A stretch of DNA of 64,000 bases, taken from contig CAWJNT010000004.1 of NCBI GenBank assembly GCA_963844305.1, positions 2,956 to 66,955 on the forward strand, in the 5' to 3' direction. Both the position numbers and the translations under genes were made by a program. The notes below the pieces were generated by a model. It ran no database searches and was not told the DNA's origin. It worked only from the letters and a program-made list of their open reading frames with translations. Positions within the stretch are counted from its first letter, which is position 1, and each line of letters opens with the position of its first letter. Shown in pieces: positions 7,604 to 59,952 of the stretch. The DNA comes from an uncultured Actinomycetota bacterium (GTDB taxonomy: Bacteria; Actinomycetota; Actinomycetes; Propionibacteriales; Nocardioidaceae).

Positions 7604-8450
7604 ATGGATGCTCAGGCTCAGATCCGTGAACTGTTAGACGGCTTCGACGGGGAGGCGGCGTACCTGGCGCGGAATCTGGTGACCGGGGAGGAGTTCGGGT
7701 ATCGGCCCGAGCGGGTGATGCCGACGGCTTCGACGATCAAAATTGTTGTGCTGGCGGAGCTGTTCCGGCAGGTTGACGCTGGTGCGGTTGATCTGGATGC
7801 GACGGTCAAGATCCAGGCTGAAGACCGGCGCGGTGGGTCGGGCATCCTGAAGGATCTGTCGGCGGGAGTGGTTGCGACGGTGCGCGATCACGCGACGCTG
7901 ATGACAGCGCTGTCGGACAACACCTCGACGGCACTGCTGGTGCGGCTGCTCGGTAGGGGAGCGGATCCTGGAGTCGGCGCGTGAAAGGGGGATGACCGAT
8001 ACAAGCGCGGGGTTCGACAGGGTCGCGGGCGGCCGCGCCCGGGACTATGCAGCTAGCACACCGCGCGACCTGGCGCATCTGCTCGGGTTGATCGCGACCG
8101 ATGCGATCGTTTCACCTGCGGCGTGCCGGGAGATGCGCGACATTCTGGGGACCAGCAGTACCACGAGCAGATCGCGCGGATGCTGCCGTTCCATCAGTTC
8201 GCACGCGAGGGGTACGTCCATAGTGGACCGGTGGTGGTTCGCTCGAAGAGCGGGTTCATGGCCGACGACAGCGGGGCTGTGCGGGTCGACGCCGGGATCG
8301 TCGAGATCGCGGATGGGCCGCGTTGGGTGATCGCGCTGATGACCGAAGGTCACCCTGATCACCGCTTCCACCCGGACCATCCGGGGATGGTCCCTGAACG
8401 GCCGCATATCGAGAATTGTCTACGACGCGTGGGCGGGCGACGCAGCCTGA
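7604..8450 (+). CDS. Serine hydrolase, class A beta-lactamase-like fold, several frameshifts
   Basis: MPTASTIK (SxxK), LSDNT (SDN), SKSG (KTG-like) spread over three frames; no signal peptide. Confidence 0.75.
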
Positions 8451-8482
8451 GGTATTGGGGAATGAGGGAGGGTCACGAGAGA

Positions 8483-9000
8483 GTGATTGTCGAACGGACA
8501 GGTGAGGCGCACGAACTGGGTTAGCAGTTGACGGTCGTCGGGGCACGTGCTCGAAGCGGGTGATGTCGCTCCGGAATATACACTGGAGTGGATGAACCCG
8601 GCTGACGGATCGATGCAGCAGGTCAGTCTCGCGGATTCGACCGGCAGCGTTCGGCTGTTGAACGTGATCAACTCGATCGACACGCCGGTCTGCCATGTCG
8701 AGACGCGGAGCTGGGAGCGGCGCCGGGGCGAACCGCCGGAGGATGTGCACGTGTTCACGATCAGCATGGACCTGCCGTTCGCACAGGCACGTTGGCACAG
8801 CGCGGAAAAGGTCGGGCATGCGTCATTGTCGGCTCACAAGAACGAGCAGTTCGGTATCGATTACGGCGTGTTGCTGAAAGAGTGGCGATTGCTGCAACGT
8901 GCGGTGTTCGTCATTGACCGCCACGGGCGGATTGCCCACAGTGAGTACGTTGGCGATCAGATGTTGGAGCCGAATTACGACGTCGCGTTGGCGGCGGCTC
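8483..9000 (+). CDS. tpx: Thiol peroxidase (Tpx-type peroxiredoxin); TAG plus frameshift near 8522-8545; 3' end fused at the junction
   Basis: SIDTPVC (peroxidatic Cys), SMDLPFAQARW, LLQRAVFV, EPNYD. Confidence 0.8.
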
Positions 9001-9010
9001 GCCGACGGCG
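8990..9010. other. Junction between two different genomes (probable chimeric assembly join)
   Basis: The tpx frame loses its stop and runs into the antisense of the kinase; the kinase is cut off after its catalytic domain; base composition and indel density change abruptly. Confidence 0.75.
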
Positions 9011-10017
9011 ACGGCCTCGGCGCCGGTGTCGCCGAACGGATCGGCCGCAGTGTCCTCGCCCGGCTCGGGCTCGACCACCACGGGCACGCGCGGCATCAGG
9101 TCGGCCTCCAGCTCCTCGTCCTCGCGTACGCCGGCCGCGAGCGCCTGGCTGACCCGGTGCAGCTGGTGGAGCATCACCGCCGCGTCGGCCGGCCGCTGCT
9201 CGCGGTCGCGCGCGGTGGCTCGCGCGACGAGCGCGTCGACGTACCGGGGGATGCCGGGCGCCTTCGCCGACGGTGGGGGCACGTCTTCGTGCACGTGCTT
9301 GTACGCCACGTGGATCGGCGAGTCGCCCTCGTGCGGCTTCGCGCCGGTCAGGAGCTCGTAGAGCACCACCCCCATGGCGTAGACGTCGGCCCGGGCGTCG
9401 GCGCGCCCGTCGACGACCAGCTCGGGGGCGAGGTAGGAGACGGTGCCGATCAGGACGCCGCCGGTGGCGGTGTGCTGGGTGTCGGCGCTGACCGCCTTGG
9501 CGAGCCCGAAGTCGGCGACCTTGACCCGGCCGTCGTCGGCGATCAGGACGTTCTCGGGCTTCACGTCGCGGTGGATCAGGCCCGCGCGGTGCGCCGCCGC
9601 CAGCGCCGAGAGCACCGGCTCGAGGAAGGCGACCGCCTTCGGCGGGCTCATCGGGCTCTCCTTGCGGATCACGTCGCGCAGGGTGTGCCCCGGGACCATC
9701 TCCATGGCGAGGTAGACGGTGCCGTCCTCGTCGCCCTGGTCGTAGACGGCCACCACGTTGGGGTGGGAGAGCCGGGCGGCGGCGCGGGCCTCGCGCACGA
9801 ATCGCGCGGCGAACTCGTCGTCGTCGCCGAGGCCGGGGTGCATCACCTTGACCGCGACCGCCCGGTCGAGCCGGATGTCGGTGGCCTCGTAGACGCTGGC
9901 CATCCCGCCGCGCGCGATCCGCGACCCGATCCGGTAGCGACCGTCCAGCAGACGGCCGTTCAAGGGGTCGCTCGTGCCGGCAGCGTCACCCGTCTGGGCG
10001 TGCTTGTCCTGCTGCAC
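9000..10017 (-). CDS. pknL: Hanks-type Ser/Thr protein kinase, PknL-like, 3' truncated at the junction
   Basis: GRYRIGSRIARGGMASVY, VAVK, HRDVKPEN, DFG, YLAPE; divergent Rv2175c-like neighbour; no TM or PASTA part before the junction. Confidence 0.75.
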
Positions 10018-10183
10018 GTCGACCTCTTTCGCACCGGTGGGGGAAGACCCCGGTCTGGTTCATGGTACGTATCCGGTGCCGCGACGCCGTCCCCGACCGA
10101 ATTGCGGCGTGGCGTGGCGCACTCTCAACGAGGTCACCCCACACCTGTTTTCGAGACGCCCTGGTTGGTGCAAGAGTGGGGCA

Positions 10184-10555
10184 ATGAGCACTCCATCCCT
10201 CGCCGACGCCGATCTGGCAGCGCTCGTCACCGAGTGGCTCGACTGGGCGGAGGCGGGGGAGCAGCTGGGGGTGACGCCCGCCAAGGTGCGCACCATGATC
10301 CGCGACCACGAGCTGGCCGCCGCCGTCTCCGCCCCCGGGGCGGGACCGCGAGTACCGGCCGCGTTCATCCAGGACGGGTTCGTGGTCAAGGGCCTGCCCG
10401 GCCTGCTGACCGTGCTGCACGACGGGGGCTTCGACGACCGGGAGTGCATCGCCTGGTTGTTCACCGACGACGACCTGCCCGGCCGACCGATCGACGCGCT
10501 GCGGGAGAACCGTGGCGCCGAGGTCAAGCGGCGGGCGCAGGCGATGGCGTTTTGA
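10184..10555 (+). CDS. Rv2175c-family DNA-binding protein
   Basis: WLDWAEAGEQLGV HTH, KGLPGLLTVLHDGG, WLFT..LPGRPIDAL...EVKRRAQAMAF. Confidence 0.85.
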   Translation: MSTPSLADADLAALVTEWLDWAEAGEQLGVTPAKVRTMIRDHELAAAVSAPGAGPRVPAAFIQDGFVVKGLPGLLTVLHDGGFDDRECIAWLFTDDDLPGRPIDALRENRGAEVKRRAQAMAF

Positions 10556-10586
10556 TCCGTAGTAACCGACGAGAGGAAATCGCTCG

Positions 10587-11018
10587 ATGAGTGGACTGGC
10601 CGCACTGCTGGCAGGGCGCAAGGAGCCCGGCATCTTCAGATGGCACGGCGCCTTCGACGTCGATACCGTCCGCCACACGGTGGAGCACGCCGGATGGCAC
10701 TTCGGCTGGGTCGACGGCTGGCACGAGGAGACGTCCGATGAGTTCCTGGCCGGGTGCGCCGAGGCGCTGAACCTGCCCGAGGGCTCCGAGAAGAGCTTCG
10801 ACGCGCTGTCCGACGGCCTGCAGGAGGTCGGCAGCGACGGCTCCGGCACCGTCCTGCTCTGGGACGGCCACAGTCCGTTCTGCCGCCACGACGACCAGGC
10901 GTTCTCGGTCGCGCTGAGCGTGCTCGGCGGCCGGGTCAACGCCGACCGCGGCGGCCCGTTCGTGGTGCTGCTGCGCGGCGAGGGCCCCGACGTGCCGGGC
11001 GTCGCCAGCATCGACTGA
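10587..11018 (+). CDS. Barstar-family protein
   Basis: FLAGCAEALNLPE..KSFDALSDGL resembles barstar FP.YFG.NLDAL.D; GTVLLW. Confidence 0.7.
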   Translation: MSGLAALLAGRKEPGIFRWHGAFDVDTVRHTVEHAGWHFGWVDGWHEETSDEFLAGCAEALNLPEGSEKSFDALSDGLQEVGSDGSGTVLLWDGHSPFCRHDDQAFSVALSVLGGRVNADRGGPFVVLLRGEGPDVPGVASID

Positions 11019-11030
11019 TCCGGGCGGCCG

Positions 11031-11201
11031 CTAGCCGAGAAGGGCCAGCACTCCCCAGGCGAGCAGGCAGAAGAGTCCGACGACCACGGACGCGACGAAT
11101 CGAGCCCATAGCAGCCAGATCAGCGTCTTGCCTGCTGCCACTGGTGTGCCGAACCACTCCCGCCACTTGTCTCCGGTGCGGATGTCGTCCAGCAGGCGCA
11201 C
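11031..11201 (-). CDS. 56-aa small membrane protein (below ORF-track cutoff)
   Basis: GTG 11201 to TAG 11031 gives MRLLDDIRTGDKWREWFGTPVAAGKTLIWLLWARFVASVVVGLFCLLAWGVLALLG; starts 4 nt after the polyprenyl synthase stop. Confidence 0.5.
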   Translation of the reverse strand: MRLLDDIRTGDKWREWFGTPVAAGKTLIWLLWARFVASVVVGLFCLLAWGVLALLG

Positions 11202-11205
11202 CCGG

Positions 11206-12270
11206 TCAGACCACCCGGTCGGTCGCGGCGGAGGCCAGGTCGCGCAGCACGCCGCGTGCCCCCTCGTCGACGTCCGCCTTGTCCAGCGCGGCCAGGGCCA
11301 GGTCGACCAGCTCGCGGATCACCGACTCCACCTGCGCGTGCGCGCCCGACTCGTCGATGATCCGGCGCATCCGCTCGACCTGGTCGACGTCGAGCGGCGT
11401 ACCGAGCGAGCGGTCGAGCAGCGCCGCATCCTCCGTCGCGGCCGCATCGAGTGCGAGCGCGACGAGCACGGTGCGCTTCCCCTCCACCAGGTCGTCGCCG
11501 GCAGGCTTGCCGGTGGCGGCCGTGTCGCCGAACACCCCGAGCAGGTCGTCGCGCAGCTGGAACGCCTCGCCCACCGGCAGCCCGTACGCCGTGAGCTCGG
11601 CGAGCGTGTCGGGCCCGGCGCCGGCGAGGGCGGCGCCGACGTGAAGCGGCCGCTCGATGGAGTACTTGGCCGACTTGTAGCGCAGCACCGTCATCGCGGT
11701 GTCGACGTCGGCCCGGCCGCGTGCCTGCGCCGACACGTCGAGGAACTGCCCGGCGATCACCTCCGAGCGGCACAGGTCGAACACGTCCTGCGCGGCGGTC
11801 ACCCGCTCGGCCGGGAGCCCGCACCGGCGGAGCAGCTCGTCGGCCCAGCTGAGCAGCAGGTCGCCGAGCAGGATCGCCGCCGACGCGCCGTACTGGTGGG
11901 GGTCGCCGCGCCAGCCCGCGCCGCGGTGGGCGGCCTCGAACGCGCGGTGGGTTGCGGGCCGCCCGCGCCGGGTGTCGGAGGCGTCCATGTAGTCGTCGTG
12001 GACCAGGGCCGAGGCGTGCAGCAGCTCGAGGGCGGCGCAGGCCCGGAGCAGGGCGCGCTCGTCCTCGACGTCGGGCTGCACGGCGCGGTATCCCCAGTAG
12101 CAGAAGGCGGCGCGGAACCGTTTCCCGCCGGAGACCATGCCGCGTGCCTCCTCGAGCAGGCGGAACGCGTCCGAGCCGAGTGGGGTGAGCCGGGACTCCA
12201 TCTCGCCGAGGAACTCGTCGAGGGCCCGCTGGATGTTCGCCCGGAAGGCGTCCCCGTCCCAGATGGTCAC
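11206..12270 (-). CDS. Polyprenyl diphosphate (GGPP) synthase
   Basis: GGKRFRA, LVHDDYMDASDTRRG (FARM), GQFLD, YKSAKYS, FQLRDDLLG (SARM), GDDLVEGKRT. Confidence 0.9.
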   Translation of the reverse strand: MTIWDGDAFRANIQRALDEFLGEMESRLTPLGSDAFRLLEEARGMVSGGKRFRAAFCYWGYRAVQPDVEDERALLRACAALELLHASALVHDDYMDASDTRRGRPATHRAFEAAHRGAGWRGDPHQYGASAAILLGDLLLSWADELLRRCGLPAERVTAAQDVFDLCRSEVIAGQFLDVSAQARGRADVDTAMTVLRYKSAKYSIERPLHVGAALAGAGPDTLAELTAYGLPVGEAFQLRDDLLGVFGDTAATGKPAGDDLVEGKRTVLVALALDAAATEDAALLDRSLGTPLDVDQVERMRRIIDESGAHAQVESVIRELVDLALAALDKADVDEGARGVLRDLASAATDRVV

Positions 12271-12344
12271 CCGGACGAGGCTATGCCATGACTCACGTTG
12301 GACGGATGCAGGGGAACCGGCCTCGTTTACCTAGACTCTGCCGC

Positions 12345-13234
12345 ATGGTCCAGGGACGGAACCGCACGCATCGGCGAGGTCATCCGCGAGGGAGAGCGCT
12401 CGATCTCCTTCGAGTTCATGCCACCCCGCGACGAGGCCGGCGCTGCCCAGCTGTGGCAGGCGATCTCCGACCTCGAGCCCTACGAGCCGACGTTCGTCTC
12501 GGTGACGTACGGCGCCGGCGGCACCACCCGCGACACGACCGTCCAGATCACCGGCCGGATCGCGCGCGAGACGTCGCTGCGCGCGATGGGACACCTCACC
12601 TGCGTCGGTCACACCCGAGCCGAGCTGGCGACGATCCTCGAGTCCTACCGCGCCGCCGGGGTCCGCAACATCCTGGCGCTGCGGGGCGACCCCAAGGACG
12701 GGCCGAGCGCCCCCTGGACGCCCACCGAGGGCGGTCTCACCTACGCCGTCGAGCTGGTCGAGCTGGTGCGTGAGATGGGCGGCTTCACCATCGGCGTCGC
12801 CGCGTTCCCCGAGGGCCACCCGTCGGCCGAGTCGCTCGAGCACGACGCGCAGGTGCTGGTCGCGAAGGCCCGCGCCGGCGCGGAGTTCGCGGTCTCCCAG
12901 CTGTTCTTCCGGCCGCAGGACTACTTCGAGCTGGTCGAGCGGGTGCGCGCCCACGGCGTCGACATCCCCGTGCTTCCCGGCATCATGCCGATCCTCAACC
13001 TGAAGTCCGTGGCGCCGCATGGCCGAGCTGTCGGGGGCCGACATCCCGGCCGAGGTGATGGCCCGTTTCGACGGCGTGAGCGAGCCCGCCGACGTACGCA
13101 GGGTGGGCGTCGAGATCGCGACCGAGTTCTGCCAGGCACTGCTGGCGGGAGGCGCTCCGGGGCTGCACTTCTACACGCTGAACCGGTCCCGCGCCACGCT
13201 CGAGATCTTCGAGGCACTCAAGATCACCGTTTAA
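12345..13234 (+). CDS. metF: Methylenetetrahydrofolate reductase (frameshifts near the start and at ~13013)
   Basis: SFEFMPP, FVSVTYGAGG, HLTCV, LALRGDP, AFPEGHP, SQLFF, PGIMP, GLHFYTLN; TAGACT -10 lies 7 nt before ATG 12345. Confidence 0.88.
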
Positions 13235-16665: not shown

Positions 16666-17020
16666 CGCTCTCGGCGCCGATCACGCGGCCGAGCGAGTCG
16701 GCGTCACGTCCGACGACGGTGGTGCCGTCGGCCGCGGTCATGATCGGCCGCTGGATCGCGCGCGGGTGGGCGGCGAGCGCCTCGAGCCACGCGTCACGTT
16801 GCGAAGGCTCGCGGGCGAGGTCGATGCCCTCCTCCCTGGCCTCCTTCGGCCGGGCGATGTCCCAGGGTTCGAGGCCGAGCCGCGAGAGCACGTCGGCGAG
16901 CTCGGCAGGCGTCGGCGGGTCGTCGAGGTAGCGCCGGACGGTGTACTCGACGCCGGCCGCGTCCAGCTCCGAGACGGCCGTGCGGCACTTGCTGCAAGCC
17001 GGGTTGAGCCAGATCTCCAT
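16658..17020 (-). CDS. ArsC/Spx-family thioredoxin-fold protein
   Basis: IWLNPACSKCR, RRYLDDPPT, HPRAIQRPI, VVGR. Confidence 0.85.
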   Translation of the reverse strand: MEIWLNPACSKCRTAVSELDAAGVEYTVRRYLDDPPTPAELADVLSRLGLEPWDIARPKEAREEGIDLAREPSQRDAWLEALAAHPRAIQRPIMTAADGTTVVGRDADSLGRVIGAESGG

Positions 17021-17493
17021 CACTCGACCTCGATGCCGGTGGCACCGGTCATCGCCACCAGCTCGTCGTACGTCGTGGAGTAGACGGCCGCCGGGTGGCC
17101 GGCGGCGGCCCAGACGACGTCGTACTTCTTCAGCCAGCTGTCGATGTACGTCGGCACGGGTCCGGGATGGCCGATGGGGGAGACACCGCCGATGACCTGG
17201 CCGGTGTGCTCGCGGACGAACTCGGGCTTGGCGCGCGCCAGGCGCCCGGCGCCGATGGTGGCCGCGGTCCGTTCGGTGTCGACGCGGTGCGCCCCGGAGG
17301 TCAGGATCAGGACGGGTGTGCCATGGTCGTCGAAGACGAGGCTGTTGGCGATCGCACCGACTTCACACCCCAGGGCCTGCGCGGCGAGCGCGGCGGTGTG
17401 GACGGACTCCGGCAGGATGACGATCTCACCGCTGCCGCCGCGGCGGGCGTGCTCGTCGCGAAATCGGATGATTGACGGGTGCTCGGTCGGCAT
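17020..17493 (-). CDS. YbaK/EbsC (ProX-like) aminoacyl-tRNA editing family protein
   Basis: TAALAAQALGCEVGAIANSLVF, SGAHRVD, TGQVIGGVSPIGH, WAAAG; TAGGGT -10 lies 7 nt before the ATG. Confidence 0.85.
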   Translation of the reverse strand: MPTEHPSIIRFRDEHARRGGSGEIVILPESVHTAALAAQALGCEVGAIANSLVFDDHGTPVLILTSGAHRVDTERTAATIGAGRLARAKPEFVREHTGQVIGGVSPIGHPGPVPTYIDSWLKKYDVVWAAAGHPAAVYSTTYDELVAMTGATGIEVE

Positions 17494-17530
17494 ACTGCGG
17501 ACCCTAGCGAGGCTTCGAGGAGGACGACGG

Positions 17531-17977: not shown

Positions 17978-18259
17978 CTACTCCTCGGTCGTCGTCCACG
18001 GTTTCCAGTCGGGATCGCGGGCCTCATGGGGTCGCGGCGGGCGCGTCCTGGTCCGGTCCTCGGGGTGCACGAAGCCGCGCGACAGGTAACGCTGCTGGCC
18101 CTCGATCAGGCTGATCCCGTTCGGCCCGCTGATCGCCGCGGGCTCTGAGTCGTCGTCCTCCCAGAAGCAGACCGCGCACACCTCGTAGGCCCCGGGGCCC
18201 TCACGCAGGGTGCGGTACCCGCAGCAGGGACAGGCGACGCGTTCGGGCATGGCGCCCAT
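17978..18259 (-). CDS. CPCC-type cysteine-rich protein
   Basis: ACPCCGYRTL..YEVCAVCFWEDD..GPNGISLIEGQQRY. Confidence 0.8.
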   Translation of the reverse strand: MGAMPERVACPCCGYRTLREGPGAYEVCAVCFWEDDDSEPAAISGPNGISLIEGQQRYLSRGFVHPEDRTRTRPPRPHEARDPDWKPWTTTEE

Positions 18260-18314
18260 GATGGGCCACGAATCGTGTCCGCGGCCCGATGTCCACACCA
18301 CTCCGGCGCAGGTC

Positions 18315-18370
18315 TTGACGTCCTGTCGGCGGCGCGGTGTAGCGTTCTCGTTGTTCGAACAGATGTTCGA
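18315..18370 (+). promoter_or_regulatory. Sigma70-type promoter with a LexA (SOS) box
   Basis: TTGACG 18315-18320, TAGCGT 18340-18345, perfect actinobacterial SOS box TCGAAC-AGAT-GTTCGA 18355-18370. Confidence 0.8.
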
Positions 18371-18495
18371 TCCGGTCCGGCGGAGACGACCTCGACCCCC
18401 GTCTCCGCCGGGCGGCCGGTCCGGTCGCGAGCGCCGAGGCAGAGCCATCCGCAGGGGTCATCGGCAGGGGTCGAGCGATGCTGGGAGAGGAACAC

Positions 18496-18867
18496 GTGAG
18501 GCGGTACGACGACCCCGTCGAGGTGCGCAGGGGGCTGGTGACCGGGATCGAGGGTCCCGAGCAGTTCCTCTGGCGCGGGCGCTTGTGGAAGGTGCGCGCG
18601 GTGCTCGCGCACTGGGTGGAGACCGGGCCCTGGTGGCAGTCGTCCGGGGTGCGGGCGGTGATCGGGTCCGACGACGCCGCGCACGCCGGTCCCGCCGCCA
18701 CGCCCCCGTCGACGCCGTCGACGCCGTCGACGCCGTCGCCCGACCTGCTCGGCGAGCGGGAGCTGTGGCGGGTCGAGGCCGGCCGGGGCGGCGACACCGA
18801 CGGAGTCTTCGACCTGTCCTTCGACTGGAACGACGGCCACTGGCAGCTCATCGGCTGCGAGGACTGA
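18496..18867 (+). CDS. DUF6504-like protein resembling the ImuB C-terminal domain
   Basis: MRRYDDPVEV, PEQFLWRGRLWKV..HWVETGPWW, RELWRVEA, GVFDLSFD..WQLIGCED; GGAGAGG RBS; first gene after the SOS box. Confidence 0.75.
   Translation: MRRYDDPVEVRRGLVTGIEGPEQFLWRGRLWKVRAVLAHWVETGPWWQSSGVRAVIGSDDAAHAGPAATPPSTPSTPSTPSPDLLGERELWRVEAGRGGDTDGVFDLSFDWNDGHWQLIGCED
18706..18738 (+). repeat. In-frame 9-bp tandem repeat (ccgtcgacg x3 plus partial; PST-PST-PST-PS)
   Basis: Read directly from the sequence. Confidence 0.85.
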
Positions 18868-18879
18868 GGAGGTGCCCCG

Positions 18880-19335
18880 ATGAACCCCCACGCCCTGCCC
18901 GCCACCACCCACTCCTACCTCGCGCGCGCCGCAGAGTCGCTCAGCGAGGCGATCAACGCCACCGACGTGCCGAGCCGCTACGCCTGCGCCCACGTCGCCG
19001 CGCTCCGGTCCGCCGCCGCCCTGCTGGCCGCCCGTGCCCATCCGGCGCCGGCGCGGCGCCGGCGACAGAAGAACGCCTGGGTGCTGCTCGCCGAGGTCGC
19101 GCCCGAGCTGGCGGAGTGGGCGCGCTTCTTCGCCGCGGGGGCCAACAAGCGGGCCGCGGCCGAGGCCGGCTCGACCCGCGCGGTCACCGACCGCGAGGCC
19201 GACGACCTGGTCCGCGACGCCGACAGGTTCCTCGGAGTCGTCGAGCAGGCGCTCGGCCTGGTGCCACACCTGCCGTTCACGGGGCGCGTGGCGGCCGCCC
19301 GCCCGGCCACGGGGGGCCGGGCGGGCGTGGCGTGA
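18880..19335 (+). CDS. SAV_6107-family HEPN-like domain protein
   Basis: RYACAHVAALRSAAALLAARA, NAWVLLAEVAPELAEWARFFAAGANKRAAAEAG, READDLVRDA.RFL. Confidence 0.8.
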   Translation: MNPHALPATTHSYLARAAESLSEAINATDVPSRYACAHVAALRSAAALLAARAHPAPARRRRQKNAWVLLAEVAPELAEWARFFAAGANKRAAAEAGSTRAVTDREADDLVRDADRFLGVVEQALGLVPHLPFTGRVAAARPATGGRAGVA

Positions 19336-19444: not shown

Positions 19445-20620
19445 ATGTCACGCCGTCTCGGGCTGCGTCGCCGTCACGCGACGCAGGTGCTGTCCCTGCT
19501 CCTGCTCGTCCCGTTGGCGGTGCTCGCGCCGGCCACCGCGCTTCCGCCCACCACCACCCTCGCCGCGCACGCCGCCGCCACCCCCATCTCCGTCGCGTCG
19601 GCGCGCGCCACCCAGGACGGCTCGTCGGCCACCGTGCGCGGGTACGTCGTCGGCCAGCCGACCTCGTCGACCACGGTCGTCACCAGCGGCTTCCCCAACG
19701 ACTTCGCGCTGGCGCTCGCCGACACGGCCGGCACCACCGACACCAGCCGGATGCTCTACGTCCAGATCCCCAGCGCGTTCCGGTCGTCGTGGGGACTGCA
19801 GTCCAACCCCGGCCTCATGGGCCGCCAGATCGATGTCACCGGCACGCTGTCGGCGTACTTCTCCCGACCCGGGCTGACCTCCAGCAGCGCCTTCGCGTTC
19901 GCCGGCGGTGGGGGAGACCCGGGTGGCGGTGACCCCGACGGCTACTACGACGACGCCATCGGCAAGACCGGGTCGCAGCTCGAGGCCGCGCTCCACGACA
20001 TCATCTCCACCGGCGACACCCCGATCTCCTACGACGCCGTGTGGAACGCGCTCAAGGTGACCGACCAGGATCCCGCCAACAGCGGCAACGTGATCGCGCT
20101 CTACAGCGGGTTCTCGATGGCGAAAGCCAACTTCGGCGGCGGCGTCGACCAGTGGAACCGCGAGCACGTGTGGGCGCAGTCCCACGGCGACTTCGGCACC
20201 TCCACGGGTCCCGGCACCGACCTCCACCACCTGCGGCCCGAGGACGTCACCGTCAACTCCGCGCGCGGCAACCTCGACTTCGACAACGGCGGCACCCAGA
20301 ACTCAGAGGCCCCCGGCAACTACGCCGACTCCAACTCCTGGGAGCCACGAGACGCCGTCAAGGGCGACGTGGCGCGGATGGTGTTCTACATGTCGGTCCG
20401 CTACGAGGGCGACGACGGCTTCCCCGACCTCGAGGCCAACGACGTGGCCGGCAACGGCTCGGTGCCGCGTCTCGGCCGGCTCTCGGTGCTGCTGCAGTGG
20501 AACGCCGAGGACCCGCCCGACGCGTTCGAGATGCGCCGCAACGACGTCATCTACGAGACCTACCAGCACAACCGGAACCCGTTCATCGACCACCCGGAGT
20601 GGGCCGACGCGATCTGGTGA
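19445..20620 (+). CDS. Secreted endonuclease I / Bsn-like nuclease with N-terminal OB-fold-like domain
   Basis: Arg-rich signal peptide; TVRGYVVG..NDFALALAD; WNREHVWAQSHG, DLHHLRPED..NSARGN, KGDVARMVFYMSVRY, HNRNPFIDHP. Confidence 0.85.
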   Translation: MSRRLGLRRRHATQVLSLLLLVPLAVLAPATALPPTTTLAAHAAATPISVASARATQDGSSATVRGYVVGQPTSSTTVVTSGFPNDFALALADTAGTTDTSRMLYVQIPSAFRSSWGLQSNPGLMGRQIDVTGTLSAYFSRPGLTSSSAFAFAGGGGDPGGGDPDGYYDDAIGKTGSQLEAALHDIISTGDTPISYDAVWNALKVTDQDPANSGNVIALYSGFSMAKANFGGGVDQWNREHVWAQSHGDFGTSTGPGTDLHHLRPEDVTVNSARGNLDFDNGGTQNSEAPGNYADSNSWEPRDAVKGDVARMVFYMSVRYEGDDGFPDLEANDVAGNGSVPRLGRLSVLLQWNAEDPPDAFEMRRNDVIYETYQHNRNPFIDHPEWADAIW

Positions 20621-20628
20621 GACCGCGG

Positions 20629-20696
20629 TGGCCGAATCCGTCGGGCGGGGGTAACGTGGAATCTGTTCGAACACATGTTCGAACAGATTCCACGTT
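20629..20696 (+). promoter_or_regulatory. dnaE2 promoter; LexA box embedded in a perfect 44-bp palindrome
   Basis: TGGCCG-17 nt-TAACGT (20629-20657); 21-bp arms 20653-20673 and 20676-20696; TCGAAC-ACAT-GTTCGA at 20667-20682. Confidence 0.75.
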
Positions 20697-20716
20697 CGTC
20701 CACCTCAGGGGGTGTC

Positions 20717-23700
20717 GTGCCGGACCCGTTCGTCCATCTCCACGTGGCCTCCGGCTACTCCCTGCAGTACGGCGCCTCCCACCCCCACACGCTGGTCGAG
20801 CGGGCCGCCGAGCAGGAGATGGACACCCTCGCGCTGACCGACCGCGACGGCACCTACGGCGCGGTGAAGTTCGCCAAGGCATGCCTGATGGCCGGGATCC
20901 GCCCGGTGCTCGGCGTCGACCTCGCCTACCGCCAGCCGGGCGGTGAGGGTCTGTCGAGACCCATCACCTCCACCCGCACCCCCGTCCGCGGTGGCGCCTT
21001 CCGCGACCCGCGGCTGCCGCGCGCCACCTTCCTGGCGTCGGGCCGGGCGGGCTGGGCGGCGGTGTGCCGGCTGGTCTCGGCCACCCACCTCGACGGCGAG
21101 CGGGGGAGCCCGGTCGCCGACCTCGACGTGCTCGCACCCCACCTCGCGTCCGGTGACGTGCTGGTGCTGCTCGGCCCCGGCTCCGCGGTGGGCGAGGCGG
21201 CCACCCGGCGCCGCGACGACCTCGCGCTCGAGGCGCTGGCTCCCTGGCGCGAGCTGGTGCCCGCCGAGAACCTCTTCGTCGAGCTGGTCTCCCACCGGCT
21301 CCCGGGAGCCGGCGGCGACTGGGGTCCCGGCACCTCCCCCCACGCCGCCCGGATGGCCGGCGTCGCCCGCCGGGCCGGACTCGGCACGGTCCTCACCAAC
21401 GCGGTCCGCTACGCCGACCGGCTCGACGCCCCGACCGTCGACGTCCTCGACGCCGCCCGCCGGCTGGTCGCCCTCGACCGCCGCCATGTCGACCGGGGCA
21501 ACGCCGAGGGCTTCCTCAAGTCCGGCAAGCAGATGCAGGAGATCGCCGAGGAGATCTGCCGGCTGGCCGGGCTGGCCGGCGACACCGAGCGCGAGGCTCG
21601 CCACCTCCTGGCCCGCACCCGCGCCGTCGCCGACCGGTGCGCCCTCGACCCGCGCGCCGACCTCGGGCTGGGCGAGGTGCACTTCCCCGAGTTCGAGCTG
21701 CTGGTCTCGACAAGCTCGACCGACGTCGGTCGAGCTGTCGAGACCCCGACCGCCGACGTCCTGCTCCGCGCCCGCTGCGAAGGCGCGATCGGCGACCGCT
21801 ACGGCTCGGCGCCGCGCCAGCGGATCTGGAAGCGCCTCGACGACGAGCTCCAGATGATCGGCCACCTCGGGTACGCGTCGTACTTCCTCACCGTCGCCGA
21901 CGTCACCGACCTGGTCCGCGACATGGGCGTGCGCTGCGCGGCCCGCGGCTCCGGCGCCGGCAGCCTGGTCAACTACCTCCTCGGCGTCTCGGGGGTCGAG
22001 CCGCTGCGCCACAACCTGCTCATGGAGCGGTTCCTCTCGCCGCTGCGGCAGGCGCTGCCCGACATCGACGTCGACGTCGAGTCGGCCCGGCGGCTCGAGG
22101 TCTACGAGGCGATCCTCGACAAGTACGGCGGCGAGCGATGCGTCTGCGTCTCGATGATGGACAGCTACCGCGTCCGGCACGCCGTGCGCGACGTCGGCGC
22201 CGCCCTCGGCATGCCGCCGGGCGAGACCGACGCCATCGCCAAGGCGTTCCCCCACATCCGTGCCCGCGACGCCCGGGTCGCGCTGCGCGAGCTGCCCGAG
22301 CTGCGGGCCAGCGGGCTGGCGGAGGAGCGGCTCGACCTGATGTTCCGGCTGGTGGAGCGGCTCGACGGGCTGCCCCGCCACATCGCCGTCCACCCGTGCG
22401 GGGTGCTGCTCTCCGATGCCACCCTGCTCGACCGCACGCCGGTGGAGGCGAGCTACGCCGGGTTCCCGATGAGCCAGTTCGACAAGGACGACGTCGAGGA
22501 CCTCGGGCTGCTCAAGCTCGACGTGCTCGGCATCCGCATGCAGTCCTCGATGGCCCACGCGGTCGCCGAGATCCAGCGGGTCGACGGGGTGGAGATCGAC
22601 CTCGACGACGAGGACCAGGTGCCGTTCGACGACCCGGCCACCTACGACCTGATCTCCTCGGCCCGCACCCTCGGCATGTTCCAGATCGAGTCGCCCGGCC
22701 AGCGCGAGCTGGTCGGCAAGTCCGGCATCGAGAGCTTCGAGGACATCATCACCGACATCTCGCTGTTCCGGCCCGGGCCGGTCAAGAGCGACATGGTCAC
22801 GCCGTACCTCGACGCCAAGCAGGGCTGGAAGATCCCGAGCTACCTCCACGACGACCTGCGTCCGATCCTCGAGGGCACCCACGGCGTGGTCGTCTTCCAC
22901 GAGCAGGTGATCGAGATCGTCGCGTTCTTCGCCGGCATCTCCTACGCCGAGGCCGACGAGTGCCGCCGCTCGCTCGGCGACGTCGACGGCATGGCGCAGA
23001 CCAAGCTGTGGTTCTATCCCCGGCTCCTCGGGCGCGGCTACCCGCTGCCGGTCGTCGAGCGCCTCTGGAAGGTGCTCGAGGCGTTCGCGTCGTTCGGGTT
23101 CTGCAAGGCCCACGCCGCGGCGTTCGCGCTGCCGACCTTCCAGTCCGCCTGGCTCAAGACGCACTGGCCGGCGCACTTCCTGGCCGGGGTGCTCACCCAC
23201 GACCCCGGCATGTACCCCAAGCGGCTGATCCTCGACGACGCCCGCCAGTTCGGCATCGCCGTGCTCGGGCTCGACGTCAACGCCTCCGGCAAGGAGTACG
23301 CCGTGGAGAAGGTCGGCGAGGAAGGCGAGTACGGCATCCGGCTCGCGCTGGCCGAGGTGAAGGGGATCAGCGAGGCCGAGGTGGACCGGATCGTCGCCGC
23401 CCGCCCGTTCCACTCGCTCACCGACCTCTGGCACCGCGCCCAGGTCTCCCGGCCCGTGCTCGAGCGGCTGGTCCTGGCCGGGGCGTTCGACTCGGTCTAC
23501 GGCATCGGCTCCTCGGTCGGCGTCCGCCCGCGCCACCAGGTGACCCGGCGCGACCTGCTGCTCCAGGTGGCCGAGCTCGACCGGCACGCCCGGGCGGTGG
23601 AGCGGGCCGGCCGGGGTCGCGGGCTGGCCGGCCGCAAGGCCTGGCAGGTCGCGGGACAGCGGGCCACCACCCCGGCCCAGACCCGCGCCGCCGACGCCGC

Positions 23701-24664
23701 CGCCCGCAACAGCACCGACCCCCGCGACCGCGCCGACGCACCCGAGCTCGAACGCCACCCGCTCGCCGACCAGGGCGTGTGGGCGAAGGCCGCCGCCCAG
23801 TCGAAGGCCACCAGGACACCCCGGCCGGTGACCTCGGTCCAGCTCACCCTCGACCTCGGCGACGAACCCGGCGAGGGCCCCGGCGAGCTGGCCAGCGGCC
23901 TGCCCGAGATGAGCGACGAGGAGCGGATGAAGGCCGAGCTGGAGATCCTCGGCCTCGACGCCAGCCGCCACGTCGTCGACACCTACGCCCCGTTCTTCGA
24001 CGCGATCGGCGTCACCCGCAGCAAGGACCTCCTGTCCCGGCGCAGCAAGGCCGAGCTGCTGGTGGCGGGCGTCAAGGTCGCCACCCAGACCCCGCCGATC
24101 CGGTCCGGCCGCCGGGTCATCTTCCTCACCCTCGACGACGCCACCGGACCGGTCGACGCGACGTTCTTCGAGGACGTCCAGGGTCCCTACGCCGCCACGG
24201 TCTTCCACTCCTGGCTGCTGGTGGTGCGCGGCGAGCTGCGGCGTACCGGCCGGCGCGGGGTCTCCCTCCGCGCGACCGGCTGCTGGGCGCTGCCCGACCT
24301 GTACGCCGTCTGGAAGGCCGCACCCACCTCGGCCGACGGCGTCCGCATGGTGCGCGAGCTGATGGCCGTGGTCCCCGAGGGCTTTGCCGACATGGGGGCG
24401 GGCGTGGGGGAGGAGGCCGTCGCCGGCGCCGCGGAGTCGCGGTCCACCCGGCCGGTGATGAGCAAGCCCGCCCCGGATCGGCAGAGCCCGACGCAGCAGG
24501 ACCCGGCCGAGAAGGGCGCCGCGGGCGGCATGGGCCGGCGGCGGGTGCTGGTGCACTCCAGCGGGTTCAAGATGTCCCCCTACTCCGACATCAAGCCGGC
24601 CGGCGAGGACACCAAGGACGTCGCCCGCAAGCTGTGGCACCGCAGCCCGGGGAGCGCGGGATGA
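20717..24664 (+). CDS. dnaE2: Second Pol III alpha, error-prone DnaE2 type
   Basis: RGSGAGS, LPDIDVD, KLDVLG, SLFRPGP, FGFCKAHA, OB fold VIFLTLDDATG, C-terminal KLWHRSPGSAG; PHP ligands degenerate; AGGGGG RBS before GTG 20717. Confidence 0.88.
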   Translation: MPDPFVHLHVASGYSLQYGASHPHTLVERAAEQEMDTLALTDRDGTYGAVKFAKACLMAGIRPVLGVDLAYRQPGGEGLSRPITSTRTPVRGGAFRDPRLPRATFLASGRAGWAAVCRLVSATHLDGERGSPVADLDVLAPHLASGDVLVLLGPGSAVGEAATRRRDDLALEALAPWRELVPAENLFVELVSHRLPGAGGDWGPGTSPHAARMAGVARRAGLGTVLTNAVRYADRLDAPTVDVLDAARRLVALDRRHVDRGNAEGFLKSGKQMQEIAEEICRLAGLAGDTEREARHLLARTRAVADRCALDPRADLGLGEVHFPEFELLVSTSSTDVGRAVETPTADVLLRARCEGAIGDRYGSAPRQRIWKRLDDELQMIGHLGYASYFLTVADVTDLVRDMGVRCAARGSGAGSLVNYLLGVSGVEPLRHNLLMERFLSPLRQALPDIDVDVESARRLEVYEAILDKYGGERCVCVSMMDSYRVRHAVRDVGAALGMPPGETDAIAKAFPHIRARDARVALRELPELRASGLAEERLDLMFRLVERLDGLPRHIAVHPCGVLLSDATLLDRTPVEASYAGFPMSQFDKDDVEDLGLLKLDVLGIRMQSSMAHAVAEIQRVDGVEIDLDDEDQVPFDDPATYDLISSARTLGMFQIESPGQRELVGKSGIESFEDIITDISLFRPGPVKSDMVTPYLDAKQGWKIPSYLHDDLRPILEGTHGVVVFHEQVIEIVAFFAGISYAEADECRRSLGDVDGMAQTKLWFYPRLLGRGYPLPVVERLWKVLEAFASFGFCKAHAAAFALPTFQSAWLKTHWPAHFLAGVLTHDPGMYPKRLILDDARQFGIAVLGLDVNASGKEYAVEKVGEEGEYGIRLALAEVKGISEAEVDRIVAARPFHSLTDLWHRAQVSRPVLERLVLAGAFDSVYGIGSSVGVRPRHQVTRRDLLLQVAELDRHARAVERAGRGRGLAGRKAWQVAGQRATTPAQTRAADAAARNSTDPRDRADAPELERHPLADQGVWAKAAAQSKATRTPRPVTSVQLTLDLGDEPGEGPGELASGLPEMSDEERMKAELEILGLDASRHVVDTYAPFFDAIGVTRSKDLLSRRSKAELLVAGVKVATQTPPIRSGRRVIFLTLDDATGPVDATFFEDVQGPYAATVFHSWLLVVRGELRRTGRRGVSLRATGCWALPDLYAVWKAAPTSADGVRMVRELMAVVPEGFADMGAGVGEEAVAGAAESRSTRPVMSKPAPDRQSPTQQDPAEKGAAGGMGRRRVLVHSSGFKMSPYSDIKPAGEDTKDVARKLWHRSPGSAG
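21703..21745. repeat. REP-like hairpin inserted in frame within dnaE2
   Basis: ggtctcgacaagctcgaccgac / gtcggtcgagctgtcgagacc: inverted repeat with a single 1-nt bulge; encodes VSTSSTDVGRAVET. Confidence 0.7.
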
Positions 24665-24683: not shown

Positions 24684-25445
24684 ATGCCGCCCTCAGGCTC
24701 CAGCAGCGTTCCCGCCACCGAGCGCCGCAGCGCCGCCCGCACCGCCGTGGTCTGGGAGGCCCTGCGCCCGGTCCTCGACGGCCTGGTCGACGAGCAGGGC
24801 GGCGACGTCCTCGACATCGGCGGCGGCACCGGCGGCTTCGCGGTCCGGGTCGCCGAGCTCGGTCACCGGGTCCGGGTGGTCGACCCCAGCCCGGACGCCC
24901 TCGCCGCCCTCGACCGGCGTGCCCGCGAGAGCGGTGTCGCCGGCGTCGCCGAGCGGGTCACCGGCCAGCAGGGCGACCTGTCCACCCTGCTCGACGTCGC
25001 CGACCCGGCCAGCACCGACCTGGTGCTGTGCCACGGCGTGCTCGAGGTCGTCGACGACCCCGCCGCCGCGCTCGCCACGATCGCCGAGGTGCTGCGTCCC
25101 GGCGGCGTGCTCAGCCTGCTCGTCGCCCAGCGGCACTCCGCGGTGGTGGCCCGGGCCATGGCCGGCCACTTCCAGCAGGCGAAGGCGCTGCTCGACTCCA
25201 CCGACCCCCACGGCCGGGCCGGGCGCCGGTTCACCCGCGAGGAGCTCGAGGCGCTGCTCCCGGCCGCCGGCCTCACCCCCACCGCGGTGCACGCCATCCG
25301 GGTCTTCGCCGACCTCGTGCCCGGCTCCCTGCTCGACCTCGAGCCCGGCGCCACCGCCGCCCTGGTCGAGCTCGAGCAGGCCGTCGCCGAGCGCCCCGAG
25401 TACCTCCCGCTCGCCGCGCAGATGCACGTCATCGCCAAGCGCTGA
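24684..25445 (+). CDS. Class I SAM-dependent methyltransferase
   Basis: VLDIGGGTGG, VVDPSPDAL, DLVLCHGVLEVVDDP, LRPGGVLSL; TAGGGT -10 lies 7 nt before the ATG. Confidence 0.88.
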   Translation: MPPSGSSSVPATERRSAARTAVVWEALRPVLDGLVDEQGGDVLDIGGGTGGFAVRVAELGHRVRVVDPSPDALAALDRRARESGVAGVAERVTGQQGDLSTLLDVADPASTDLVLCHGVLEVVDDPAAALATIAEVLRPGGVLSLLVAQRHSAVVARAMAGHFQQAKALLDSTDPHGRAGRRFTREELEALLPAAGLTPTAVHAIRVFADLVPGSLLDLEPGATAALVELEQAVAERPEYLPLAAQMHVIAKR

Positions 25446-25465: not shown

Positions 25466-26665
25466 ATGGCTGACCGGTCCCGGCACTGCCCGATCCTGCA
25501 CGTCGACATGGACGCGTTCTATGCAGCCGTGGCCGTACGCGAGCGCCCCGACCTGCTCGACGTGCCCCTCGTGATCGGCGGCGGGTACCGCGGCGTGGTG
25601 CTGTGCGCCAACTACCACGCCCGCGCGTACGGCGTCCGGTCCGGGATCCCGATGACCCGCGCCCGGCGGATGTGCCCGCAGCTGGTGGTGGTCCCGCCCG
25701 ACTACGACACCTTCGAGCAGGTGTCGACCTCGGTGCGCGAGACCTTCCGCCGGGTGACGCCGCAGGTCGAGGTGCTCTCGCTCGACGAGGCGTTCCTCGA
25801 CGTGCGCGGGTCGGTCCGGCGGCTGGGCACACCCCTCGAGATCGCCGAGCGGCTGCGCGCCGTCATCCACGACGAGCAGGGCATCACCTGCTCGGTCGGG
25901 GTGGCGGCCTCGGTGTCGGTGGCCAAGCTCGCCAGCAGGCGGGCCAAGCCCGACGGCGTCATCGTCGTACCCCCCGAGACCATCACCTCGTTCCTCCACC
26001 CGCTGGACGTCGGCGAGCTGTGGGGAGTGGGGGAGAAGACCCAGACGATGCTGAACCGGCTCGGCCTGGTCACCGTCGGCGACGTCGCCCACACCCCGCT
26101 GCGCACCCTCCAGCGCGCGGTCGGCGACCACCTCGGCGGCCATCTCCACGAGCTGGCCTGGGGCACCGACCGGCGCGAGGTCGCCGCGGGGCGCGGTTTC
26201 TTCGGCCGGGGCGAGGGCGAGCCCGACAAGTCGATGGGTGCCGACGAGACCTTCGGCCGCGACACCGACGACCGCACCGTCATCCTGCGCGAGCTGCTGA
26301 AGCTCACCGCCAAGGTCACCGGCCGGATGCGGGTGGCCGGGGTGGCCGGCCGCACCATCACGATCAAGGTCCGCTTCGCCGACTTCACCACCATCACCCG
26401 CTCCCGGACCATCCCCGAGGCGACCGACGTCACCCAGGAGATCTACCGCACCGCCACCGCCCTGTACGACGCCCTCGGGCTGCAGCGCGCCCGGATCCGG
26501 CTGGTCGGGGTCCGGGTCGAGGGGCTCGTGCCCCGCACGACGGTGCACCGCCAGCTGGTGCTGGGGGAGCCCGAACACGGCTGGTCCGACGCCGACCGCG
26601 CGGTCGACCGGGCCACGCTGCGGTTCGGGTCTGCCGCCGTACGCCCGGCCAGCCTGCTCACCTGA
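25466..26665 (+). CDS. dinB: DNA polymerase IV (Y-family)
   Basis: HVDMDAFYA, CANYHARAYGVRSG, SLDEAFLD, AKLAS..AKPDG, LWGVG, RLVGV; clamp-motif-like QLVL; tail RFGSAAVRPASLL. Confidence 0.92.
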   Translation: MADRSRHCPILHVDMDAFYAAVAVRERPDLLDVPLVIGGGYRGVVLCANYHARAYGVRSGIPMTRARRMCPQLVVVPPDYDTFEQVSTSVRETFRRVTPQVEVLSLDEAFLDVRGSVRRLGTPLEIAERLRAVIHDEQGITCSVGVAASVSVAKLASRRAKPDGVIVVPPETITSFLHPLDVGELWGVGEKTQTMLNRLGLVTVGDVAHTPLRTLQRAVGDHLGGHLHELAWGTDRREVAAGRGFFGRGEGEPDKSMGADETFGRDTDDRTVILRELLKLTAKVTGRMRVAGVAGRTITIKVRFADFTTITRSRTIPEATDVTQEIYRTATALYDALGLQRARIRLVGVRVEGLVPRTTVHRQLVLGEPEHGWSDADRAVDRATLRFGSAAVRPASLLT

Positions 26666-54183: not shown

Positions 54184-54873
54184 TGGACGAGTGGCGGCTG
54201 CGTCCCGCGGGCCGCACCGATCTGCCGGAGCTCGCCGACATCTACCTGCGTGCCCGCGAAGCAGCCCTGCCGGCGATGCCGCCGGGGGTGCACCCTGCCG
54301 ACGAGGTGCGGACCTGGGTCTCCGGCTGGGACCTCGACGCCTGGGTGGTCTGGCTCGCCGAACTGCCGGACGGTCGGCCCGTCGGGTACGCCGTGGTCGG
54401 CGGGGGACTGGCTCCACTCCCTGTACGTCGACCCGGACGCCGCCGGCGGTGGCATCGGGACGGCGCTCCTGGACGTGGTCAAGCAGCAGCGTCCTGAGGG
54501 CTTCTGCCTCTGGGTCTTCGAGAGCAACGCGCCGGCCCGCGCGTTCTACGCGAACCGCGGGCTGATCGAGCTGGAGCGCACTGACGGGTCGGCCAACGAG
54601 GAGAAGGCCCCCGATGTCCGCATGGCGTGGCTGGGCTCCGATCCGGCCATGTTCCTGCGCGGTCTGCTGAACGACGTCGATGAGCAGGCCAAGGACCTGG
54701 CGGACCGCCGAGAGGCACTTGTTCGTGCCCTGGAGGACGCTCGGGGCGCGCTGAGGGACGGCGTCCGACCCCGCGTGGCGAGCGGTGGATCTGCTCAGGC
54801 CACGCGGGACCAGACACCGGGACGCGTCTGCCGCCACACGGGTTCGACCAGCGGCGGTGCATTCGACAGGTAG
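54183..54873 (+). CDS. GNAT acetyltransferase with a short helical C-terminal extension; frameshift in the G-run ~54405; 3' end uncertain
   Basis: LHSLYVDPDAAGGGIGTALL (motif A), LWVFESNAPARAFY, DGSANEEKAPD. Confidence 0.75.
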
Positions 54874-56125: not shown

Positions 56126-56138
56126 CCGTTCGACGCTA
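56118..56138 (-). promoter_or_regulatory. LexA box overlapping the leaderless start of the DUF222-HNH gene
   Basis: TCGAAC-ACCC-GTTCGA 56118-56133; minus-strand TAGCGT (56138-56133) lies 7 nt before GTG 56125. Confidence 0.8.

Positions 56139-56394: not shown

Positions 56395-59948
<3,554 letters not shown>

Positions 59949-59952
<4 letters not shown>

Follow-up and report, generated by a model that had tools for sequence, protein, structure and literature searches.

The window, by which we mean the entire 64-kb stretch of DNA examined here, belongs to a single contig and was characterized by open reading frame (ORF) calling, Pfam and NCBIfam profile searches, tblastn, Tandem Repeats Finder (TRF), AlphaFold2, Foldseek, hhalign and PADLOC. 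At positions 18496–18867 of its plus strand lies a small gene of the Pfam family DUF6504, the product of which resembles the C-terminal domain of ImuB (ImuB-C) and which we call imuB-C. This gene opens a cassette in which it is followed, on the same strand, by genes for a HEPN protein of the SAV_6107 family, a DnaE2-type polymerase (dnaE2B), an S-adenosylmethionine (SAM)-dependent methyltransferase and a Y-family polymerase (polY), in that order. The elements of the cassette are as follows.

18355–18370: LexA (SOS) box TCGAACAGATGTTCGA, a perfect TCGAAC-N4-GTTCGA, 126–141 nucleotides 5′ of the imuB-C GTG
18496–18867, plus strand: imuB-C, stand-alone ImuB C-terminal domain (Pfam DUF6504), 123 amino acids, assigned by PF20114 (E = 1.8e-18), identity to an orthologue and hhalign
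18706–18738, plus strand: 9-bp tandem repeat CCGTCGACG in 3.7 copies (TRF, 100% matches), encoding the (PST)3 stretch
18880–19335, plus strand: HEPN_SAV_6107 protein, 151 amino acids, starting 12 nucleotides after the imuB-C stop (Pfam PF18726, E = 1.6e-35)
20667–20682: second LexA box TCGAACACATGTTCGA, a perfect match, just upstream of dnaE2B
20675–24664, plus strand: dnaE2B, accessory C-family polymerase, 1329 amino acids from ATG 20675 (Pfam PHP, DNA_pol3_alpha, finger, HHH_6 and OB)
24684–25445, plus strand: class I SAM-dependent methyltransferase, 253 amino acids (Pfam Methyltransf_11/23/12/25)
25466–26665, plus strand: polY, DinB-like Y-family polymerase, 399 amino acids (Pfam IMS, IMS_HHH and IMS_C; NCBIfam DNA polymerase IV, 363 bits)

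Two in-frame start codons share the imuB-C stop at 18867, a GTG at 18496 that gives a protein of 123 residues and an ATG at 18478 that gives one of 129. The GTG is the likelier start because nearly all homologues begin with M-RRYDDPVEV, which matches a start at 18496, and because GGGAGAGGA is found a few bases 5′ of it. Motif positions below refer to the 123-residue form and invariant Trp and Arg positions to the 129-residue form. A first-pass annotation, made by a model from the sequence alone, had described this ORF as having two successive motifs and, in a variable loop, a (PST)3 repeat, and all of these are present at the positions given: the first motif, PEQFLWRGRLWKVRAVLAHWVETGPWW, spans residues 21–47 (nucleotides 18556–18636), the second, RELWRVEAGRGGDTDGVFDLSFDWNDGHWQLIGCED, residues 88–123, and the PST stretch, TPPSTPSTPSTPSP, residues 69–82. 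The PST-bearing loop is hypervariable among homologues in both length and sequence. The closest relatives (P0001, P0003 and P0004) carry one or two copies of the PST repeat compared to three in the window, and this difference in CCGTCGACG copy number points to strand slippage as a source of variation in a disordered loop.

The membership in DUF6504 that the same annotation had proposed is more than a chance match, as the protein scores 67.1 bits against a PF20114 cut-off of 24.2 and covers profile positions 3–99 of 103. Homologues are numerous (2975 at E ≤ 0.001 in a set clustered at 90% identity, or 780 clusters at 50% identity), with the top matches in Nocardioides and Nocardioidaceae; a look-up of cluster members for DUF6504 clusters returned almost no taxonomy. 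Across 71 sequences the invariant positions are W32, W46, W53, W97, R98 and W122. In its AlphaFold2 model, the protein displays a six-strand all-β core (strands 8–21, 24–32, 35–48, 94–103, 107–116 and 121–128) with a predicted local distance difference test score (pLDDT) above 90 and no long helices, and a loop at 55–92 that is predicted to be disordered, the pLDDT of residues 63–87 being below 50. A Foldseek search of this model against the PDB revealed no related fold (best E 4.1, template modeling score below 0.25), and a PDB sequence search with the 129-residue protein returned only low-complexity matches to the PST loop. The lack of a fold match in the PDB agrees with the description of ImuB-C as a β-barrel of novel fold (PMC12926913). 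The protein thus fits the traits of the ImuB-C superfamily, which are a mainly β structure, a conserved C-terminal Trp with basic residues, and no match to a known fold.

To relate DUF6504 to ImuB, we used three reference ImuB proteins taken from annotated imuA-imuB-dnaE2 cassettes on plasmids of Burkholderia, Agrobacterium and Streptomyces. The C-terminal pattern of ImuB that the first-pass annotation had given is a real one. The Agrobacterium protein ends in ...PPVSITWRGKRRKVKRADGPERIFGEWWQRDAEMEAVRDYFVIEDEAGERLWVFRSGDGIDPDTGSHRWFVHGIFA (in a longer stretch, ...PPVSITWRGKRRKVKRADGPERIFGEWWQRDAEMEAVRDYFVIEDEAGERLWVFRSG...HRWFVHGIFA), and this end is, on inspection, collinear with the window protein. 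A search with its C-terminal 112 residues retrieved proteins named ‘protein ImuB’ or ‘DNA polymerase Y family protein, partial’; a precomputed PF20114 match is attached to the majority. When 35 of these ImuB C-terminal sequences were rescanned, PF20114 matched 34, with a best E of 2.6e-8. The profile also matched residues 428–498 of the full-length Agrobacterium ImuB (503 residues, E = 0.004); the full-length Burkholderia ImuB and Streptomyces ImuB2 both failed to reach E < 1. The annotation had named beforehand, as a test, a profile comparison with ImuB C-termini. In hhalign, 88-residue DUF6504 proteins of Streptosporangiales aligned with ImuB-C over the full domain, in the register that had been proposed, with a probability of 87% (P = 3.7e-6). 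These short proteins in turn aligned with the Nocardioides type with a probability of 99.8% (E = 3e-28), and 118 diverse stand-alone representatives aligned with ImuB-C with a probability of 64% (P = 6e-5). Furthermore, the window protein and QBR94233, listed as the ImuB-C of Nocardioides euryhalodurans, share 73% identity (E = 3e-56). Sequence comparison thus supports the identification of the DUF6504 gene product as a free-standing ImuB C-terminal domain. A search of representatives at 50% identity (780 clusters) stayed within such proteins and did not reach ImuB. The top 150 were nearly all stand-alone proteins, and the long proteins among them carried DUF6504 mostly alone, in two cases together with HEPN_SAV_6107 and in none with a Y-family domain; these long proteins may be gene-calling artefacts.

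The conservation of the cassette was examined in two sets of loci. A scan of genomes yielded 80 loci, all of them from Nocardioidaceae because the scan patterns were highly specific. A scan of metagenomes with a Janibacter-headed alignment as the query yielded another 80 and is the source of taxonomic breadth, the ImuB-C proteins of these loci being 37–68%, and mostly 40–50%, identical to that of Janibacter. In the Nocardioidaceae set, the HEPN gene is present in 79 loci, dnaE2 in 78, the methyltransferase gene in 68 and dinB in 67, and contig ends explain most of the shortfalls. The corresponding counts in the metagenomic set are 70, 60, 15 and 15; in the 16 loci where the sequence downstream extends for 6.5 kb or more, dinB was found in 15 and the methyltransferase gene in 13, all 13 of them among the 15 holding dinB. 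The gene order and the single strand are kept in Nocardioidaceae, and the same order is found in relatives at 40–60% identity. The genes divergent from imuB-C in the window, on the minus strand at 17978–18448 and 17020–17520, encode a Cys_rich_CPCC protein and a protein with a YbaK/aminoacyl-tRNA-editing domain.

The association of DUF6504 with dnaE2 extends to Streptosporangiales. In Nonomuraea, Microbispora and related soil contigs, a DUF6504 gene with a product of 88 residues lies directly 5′ of dnaE2, with no HEPN or PolY gene; in Nonomuraea the two genes overlap, the stop of the former with the start of dnaE2. Because the surroundings of this pair are otherwise unrelated to those in the window, the DUF6504-dnaE2 linkage recurs independently of local chromosome order. 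A tblastn search of plasmids found DUF6504 only in Nonomuraea and no HEPN gene. In the linear plasmid NZ_CP109523.1 (L001) of Streptomyces anulatus, at 8082–12529, the stop of a dnaE2B-like gene overlaps a truncated Y-family gene of 328 residues that is annotated as hypothetical; DUF6504 was not detectable on this plasmid, and the pair looks like the published iPolY-DnaE2B type without ImuB-C.

The palindrome TCGAAC-N4-GTTCGA, which we take to be the actinobacterial LexA operator, has three perfect matches in the 64 kb, and two of them, TCGAACAGATGTTCGA and TCGAACACATGTTCGA, belong to the cassette. A perfect box lies 20–195 nucleotides 5′ of the imuB-C orthologue in 78 of the 80 Nocardioidaceae loci, and a box that is perfect or has one mismatch lies within 300 nucleotides 5′ of imuB-C in 62 of the 65 metagenomic loci with enough upstream sequence. 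The 472 kb of metagenomic loci contain 42 perfect boxes, 38 of which are upstream of imuB-C. A second box precedes dnaE2 in 17 of the 80 Nocardioidaceae loci, namely those with a gap or an inserted gene between the HEPN gene and dnaE2.

The dnaE2B gene probably starts at GTG 20717 and not at ATG 20675. Its product scores below both relevant NCBIfam cut-offs (631 versus 1002 for DnaE1, and 626 versus 939 for error-prone DnaE2), and its N-terminus, PDPFVHLHVASGYSLQYG, matches by eye that of the published DnaE2B QBR90836, MSPDPFVHLHVASGYSLQYG. The metal-ligand positions of its PHP domain are substituted (HLHVASGYSLQYG compared to HLHVHTEYSMLDG in DnaE1). By sequence, the 20675–24664 gene is assigned to the B group of DnaE2, distinct from the replicative DnaE1. 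The protein carries QLTLDL at residues 1056–1061 (23840–23857), at about the position of the internal clamp-binding motif of DnaE1, which in the DnaE1 of the window is QDSLF at residue 948; DnaE2B itself may contact the β clamp via this clamp-like element. Its C-terminus is a long low-complexity extension.

PolY carries VDMDAFY at residues 13–19, SLDEAF at 105–110 and QLVLGE at 363–368, followed by a C-terminal tail, ADRAVDRATLRFGSAAVRPASLL, at 376–398. This tail varies hardly at all across 66 orthologues, matches by eye that of the published PolY QBR90838 and, again judged by eye and without a profile, resembles the RecA N-terminus, KALDVALANIEKQFGKGSVMRLG. The enzyme is apparently active, with its catalytic motifs intact, and would carry both a clamp motif and a RecA N-terminus-like (RecA-NT-like) tail. 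The active DinB with a QLVL clamp motif that the first-pass annotation had placed next to the DUF6504 gene is therefore real as regards its motifs, strand and cassette, but it is not an immediate neighbor: its start at 25466 is 6.6 kb further downstream, and four genes intervene.

We consider it quite probable that the 18496–18867 ORF encodes an ImuB-C adaptor and heads a LexA-repressed DnaE2B/PolY cassette. From the homology, the operon, the boxes and the motifs that we observe, we infer the contacts, the induction and the mutagenesis as follows. LexA would repress the cassette, and its cleavage after DNA damage would lead to derepression. The ImuB-C protein would then act as a non-catalytic adaptor, in the role that the ImuB C-terminus has in canonical ImuA-ImuB-DnaE2 mutasomes. 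It would dock on the degenerate, inactive PHP domain of DnaE2B and bridge this polymerase to PolY, a contact for which the prediction draws on homology, on the linkage of the genes and on AlphaFold models in the literature. PolY would reach the β clamp via QLVLGE and RecA via its RecA-NT-like tail, with RecA substituting for the missing ImuA. The product would be a DnaE2B-PolY-ImuB-C-RecA complex for translesion synthesis and mutagenesis, the Y-family partner of which would be catalytically competent, unlike ImuB.

Several observations weigh against this interpretation, and some of them concern the homology itself. An alignment of Nocardioides proteins only (Neff 1.7) gave an hhalign probability of 3% with ImuB-C (P = 0.015), and a hidden Markov model of the 118 diverse stand-alone proteins scored ImuB fragments at no more than 18.7 bits. 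The link between DUF6504 and ImuB-C runs through transitive and Pfam-mediated matches, and a direct link from a Nocardioides-type profile is weak; the profile-profile outcome varies with alignment diversity and improves only when the stand-alone sets are more diverse. An ImuB-C fragment was modeled by AlphaFold2 with low confidence (pLDDT 52), too low for superposition, and no ImuB chain was found in the PDB. The 3% result, the low pairwise identity and the absence of a BLASTP match between the window protein and the Thermobaculum-type ImuB-C from a published list (PMC12926913) would all fit a resemblance that is convergent or compositional, arising from short Trp/Arg-rich β-strands in a family unrelated to ImuB. 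Yet PF20114 matches the ImuB C-termini at the correct terminal position in 34 of 35 cases, the best hhalign comparison is collinear over the full length, DUF6504 is associated in genomes with DnaE2 and PolY just as ImuB is, and an independent published classification by PSI-BLAST and HHpred names the orthologue ImuB-C. We give such convergence next to no chance.

The other opposing points concern the system. The published DnaE2B-PolY-ImuB-C-RecA complexes are AlphaFold models (PMC12926913). A tblastn search of the 64-kb window with three ImuA and two ImuB queries matched only the DinB gene and revealed no imuA or imuB, and absence from the whole genome lies beyond the reach of these 64 kb. The cassette and the YbaK-like gene upstream are syntenic in 74 of the 80 genomes and 48 of the 80 metagenomic loci, so part of the synteny may reflect vertical inheritance or chromosome order and not function. 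Finally, one DUF6504 gene, in Actinocorallia, has no polymerase within 8 kb, so that the tie between the domain and DnaE2 is not a strict one. This lone gene and the richness of the window protein in conserved Arg and Trp accord with a proposal of Aravind et al. for ImuB-C in 2013, which was based on its links with DinB, UmuC, Ku/ligase and SplB photolyase and on its conserved basic residues and C-terminal Trp (PMC3765255): the protein would be a damage-sensing DNA-binding module that detects lesions or stalled structures and brings in whatever repair enzymes are co-expressed, and not a dedicated DnaE2-docking subunit. However, AlphaFold models put ImuB-C on the DnaE2 PHP domain (PMC12926913), and the actinobacterial stand-alone genes that we examined are almost always directly 5′ of dnaE2. 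We regard damage sensing in place of docking as unlikely, although the two roles are not mutually exclusive.

The adaptor reading leaves two conserved genes of the cassette to be placed. The HEPN and methyltransferase genes are retained across a deep divergence, from Nocardioidaceae to the distant metagenomic relatives, and the methyltransferase gene fits tightly between its neighbors (19 nucleotides after dnaE2B and 20 before polY); its product has a weak CmoM-like NCBIfam match (99 bits versus a cut-off of 366). The survey that modeled the complexes (PMC12926913) is silent on both genes in its main text. In its supplement, the accession numbers of ImuB-C, DnaE2B and PolY are spaced by two in Janibacter and Kineococcus, which fits one gene in between at each junction; those of ImuB-C and DnaE2B are also two apart in Ornithinimicrobium and are consecutive in Tessaracoccus. 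It is conceivable, but we lean against it, that this mutasome variant has additional dedicated components in HEPN_SAV_6107 and perhaps also in the SAM-methyltransferase. The HEPN protein, which is helical and non-catalytic and has its gene between imuB-C and dnaE2B in almost all such cassettes, might be an extra subunit or an assembly or regulatory factor, possibly doing some of what the missing ImuA does. As the SAV_6107 family is listed without the conserved catalytic Rx4-6H motif of HEPN proteins (PMC3710099), we speculate that a structural or regulatory role is more plausible than that of an RNase.

DUF6504 and the HEPN protein could instead be read as a self-contained two-gene module, regulatory or toxin-antitoxin-like, that stands beside the polymerases merely by inherited order. 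The 12-nucleotide spacing of the two genes, their joint presence in 79 of the 80 Nocardioidaceae and 70 of the 80 metagenomic loci, the synteny of the YbaK-like gene upstream and a few metagenomic gene calls with both matches (P0333 and P0340, which may be gene-calling artefacts) can be cited for it, as can the frequency of HEPN domains in toxin-antitoxin and defence systems (PMC3710099). PADLOC made no convincing defence-system assignment in the window; its weak candidate match, PDC-M05B (E = 5e-4), counts for the module. The module is hard to square with a HEPN family devoid of the catalytic motif, with the homology of DUF6504 to a known polymerase-accessory domain, and with Streptosporangiales, which retain DUF6504-dnaE2 without HEPN. 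The ImuB-C and DnaE2B accession numbers of Tessaracoccus and Arthrobacter are consecutive, so that DUF6504 tracks dnaE2 and not HEPN. We find the module very unlikely, and a polymerase adaptor remains our preferred reading of the DUF6504 protein.

Three further features of the window lie within or outside the cassette.

19445–20620, plus strand: Endonuclease I/DUF6359 gene, 391 amino acids, product possibly secreted (Pfam PF04231 and PF19886)
56118–56133: third LexA box TCGAACACCCGTTCGA, a perfect match
56395–59952: dnaE1 (NCBIfam 1520 bits versus a cut-off of 1002)

The Endonuclease I gene is found between the HEPN gene and dnaE2 in 6 of the 80 Nocardioidaceae loci and 1 of the 80 metagenomic loci, and is an occasional insertion into the cassette and not a core member. 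The third LexA box lies about 85 nucleotides upstream of a divergent ORF of 412 residues (54795–56033, minus strand) and about 260 nucleotides upstream of dnaE1 (56395). The 412-residue product has, by eye, an HNH-like Cys/His C-terminus and matches no Pfam or NCBIfam family.

Stand-alone ImuB-C has been described since 2013, when Aravind et al. defined the domain and found such versions in operons with DinB, DnaE2 and UmuC (PMC3765255). Timinskas and Venclovas described ImuA-less variants with a stand-alone ImuB-C in 2019 and proposed that ImuB arose by fusion of PolY with it (PMC6511836). A 2026 survey in Nucleic Acids Research reported DnaE2B-PolY-[ImuB-C]-RecA and DnaE2B-[ImuB-C] systems to be specific to Actinobacteria, with AlphaFold tetramers for Nocardioides, Janibacter, Kineococcus, Ornithinimicrobium and Tessaracoccus in which ImuB-C mediates the contact with the DnaE2 PHP domain; its supplementary data file 4 lists N. 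euryhalodurans as ‘DnaE2B-PolY-ImuBC-RecA system, good tetramer complex modeled’ (PMC12926913). The finding is thus already known, with the system published for Nocardioides itself. These publications also bear on the statement of the first-pass annotation that ImuB has been split. The two parts are indeed encoded by separate genes, but the direction of the event is not settled: our data favor neither fission nor fusion, and published opinion favors fusion (PMC6511836). What that annotation had not noticed are the LexA boxes, the DinB tail that resembles the RecA N-terminus, and the conserved genes for the HEPN protein and the methyltransferase.

The name DUF6504 was not found in the literature searched, and its identity with ImuB-C is not stated there; ‘DUF6504 family protein, partial’ is already the NCBI name of some ImuB fragments. 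Equating DUF6504 with ImuB-C, and the conservation of the HEPN and methyltransferase genes, may be new. The first would allow entries labeled ‘DUF6504 family protein’, which databases still treat as uncharacterized, to be read as ImuB-C, and the second, in a LexA-controlled cassette, might add members to the complex. DnaE2-dependent mutasomes are drivers of the mutagenesis that damage induces, which in mycobacteria includes mutations to drug resistance, and a system of this kind could ease the biochemical study of the contact between ImuB-C and DnaE2.

Among known systems, the operon lexA-imuB-C-polY in Geobacter sulfurreducens (PMC6511836, PMC3765255) shares with the window a stand-alone ImuB-C, a Y-family polymerase that is active, and SOS control, but has no DnaE2, and its sequences are only distantly related to those described here. 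The two-gene DnaE2B-[ImuB-C] systems, of the Arthrobacter alpinus type and in Streptosporangiales, share with the window a stand-alone DUF6504/ImuB-C gene, which in them adjoins or overlaps dnaE2B; their cassettes lack PolY, HEPN and methyltransferase genes, their ImuB-C proteins have 88–111 residues, and those of Streptosporangiales are without the long disordered loop of the window protein.

The canonical ImuA(ImuA′)-ImuB-DnaE2 mutasome of M. tuberculosis, Pseudomonas and Caulobacter has in common with the window SOS control, a DnaE2-type polymerase dependent on an ImuB-C domain, and a Y-family module that bears a β-clamp motif and a RecA-NT motif. In the canonical layout, ImuB-C is fused to a Y-family-like domain that has lost its catalytic residues, whereas the 18496–18867 ORF comprises the ImuB-C domain only, as a separate protein of 123 residues and not the C-terminus of a Y-family protein. 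The Y-family partner in the window retains its catalytic residues, whereas canonical ImuB is catalytically dead; ImuA is not detectable in the window, where RecA presumably substitutes for it; and the DnaE2 is of the B group, below the NCBIfam cut-off for the error-prone enzyme. The closest counterpart is the system of N. euryhalodurans (QBR94233, QBR90836 and QBR90838; PMC12926913), which comprises the same set, namely a stand-alone ImuB-C, a DnaE2 with a degenerate PHP domain and a PolY that is active and bears clamp and RecA-NT motifs. Nothing essential differs between the two, and the system in the window is orthologous to it. Compared with the main text of that survey, what the window shows in addition is LexA boxes, genes for HEPN_SAV_6107 and a methyltransferase within the cassette, and the Endonuclease I insertion.

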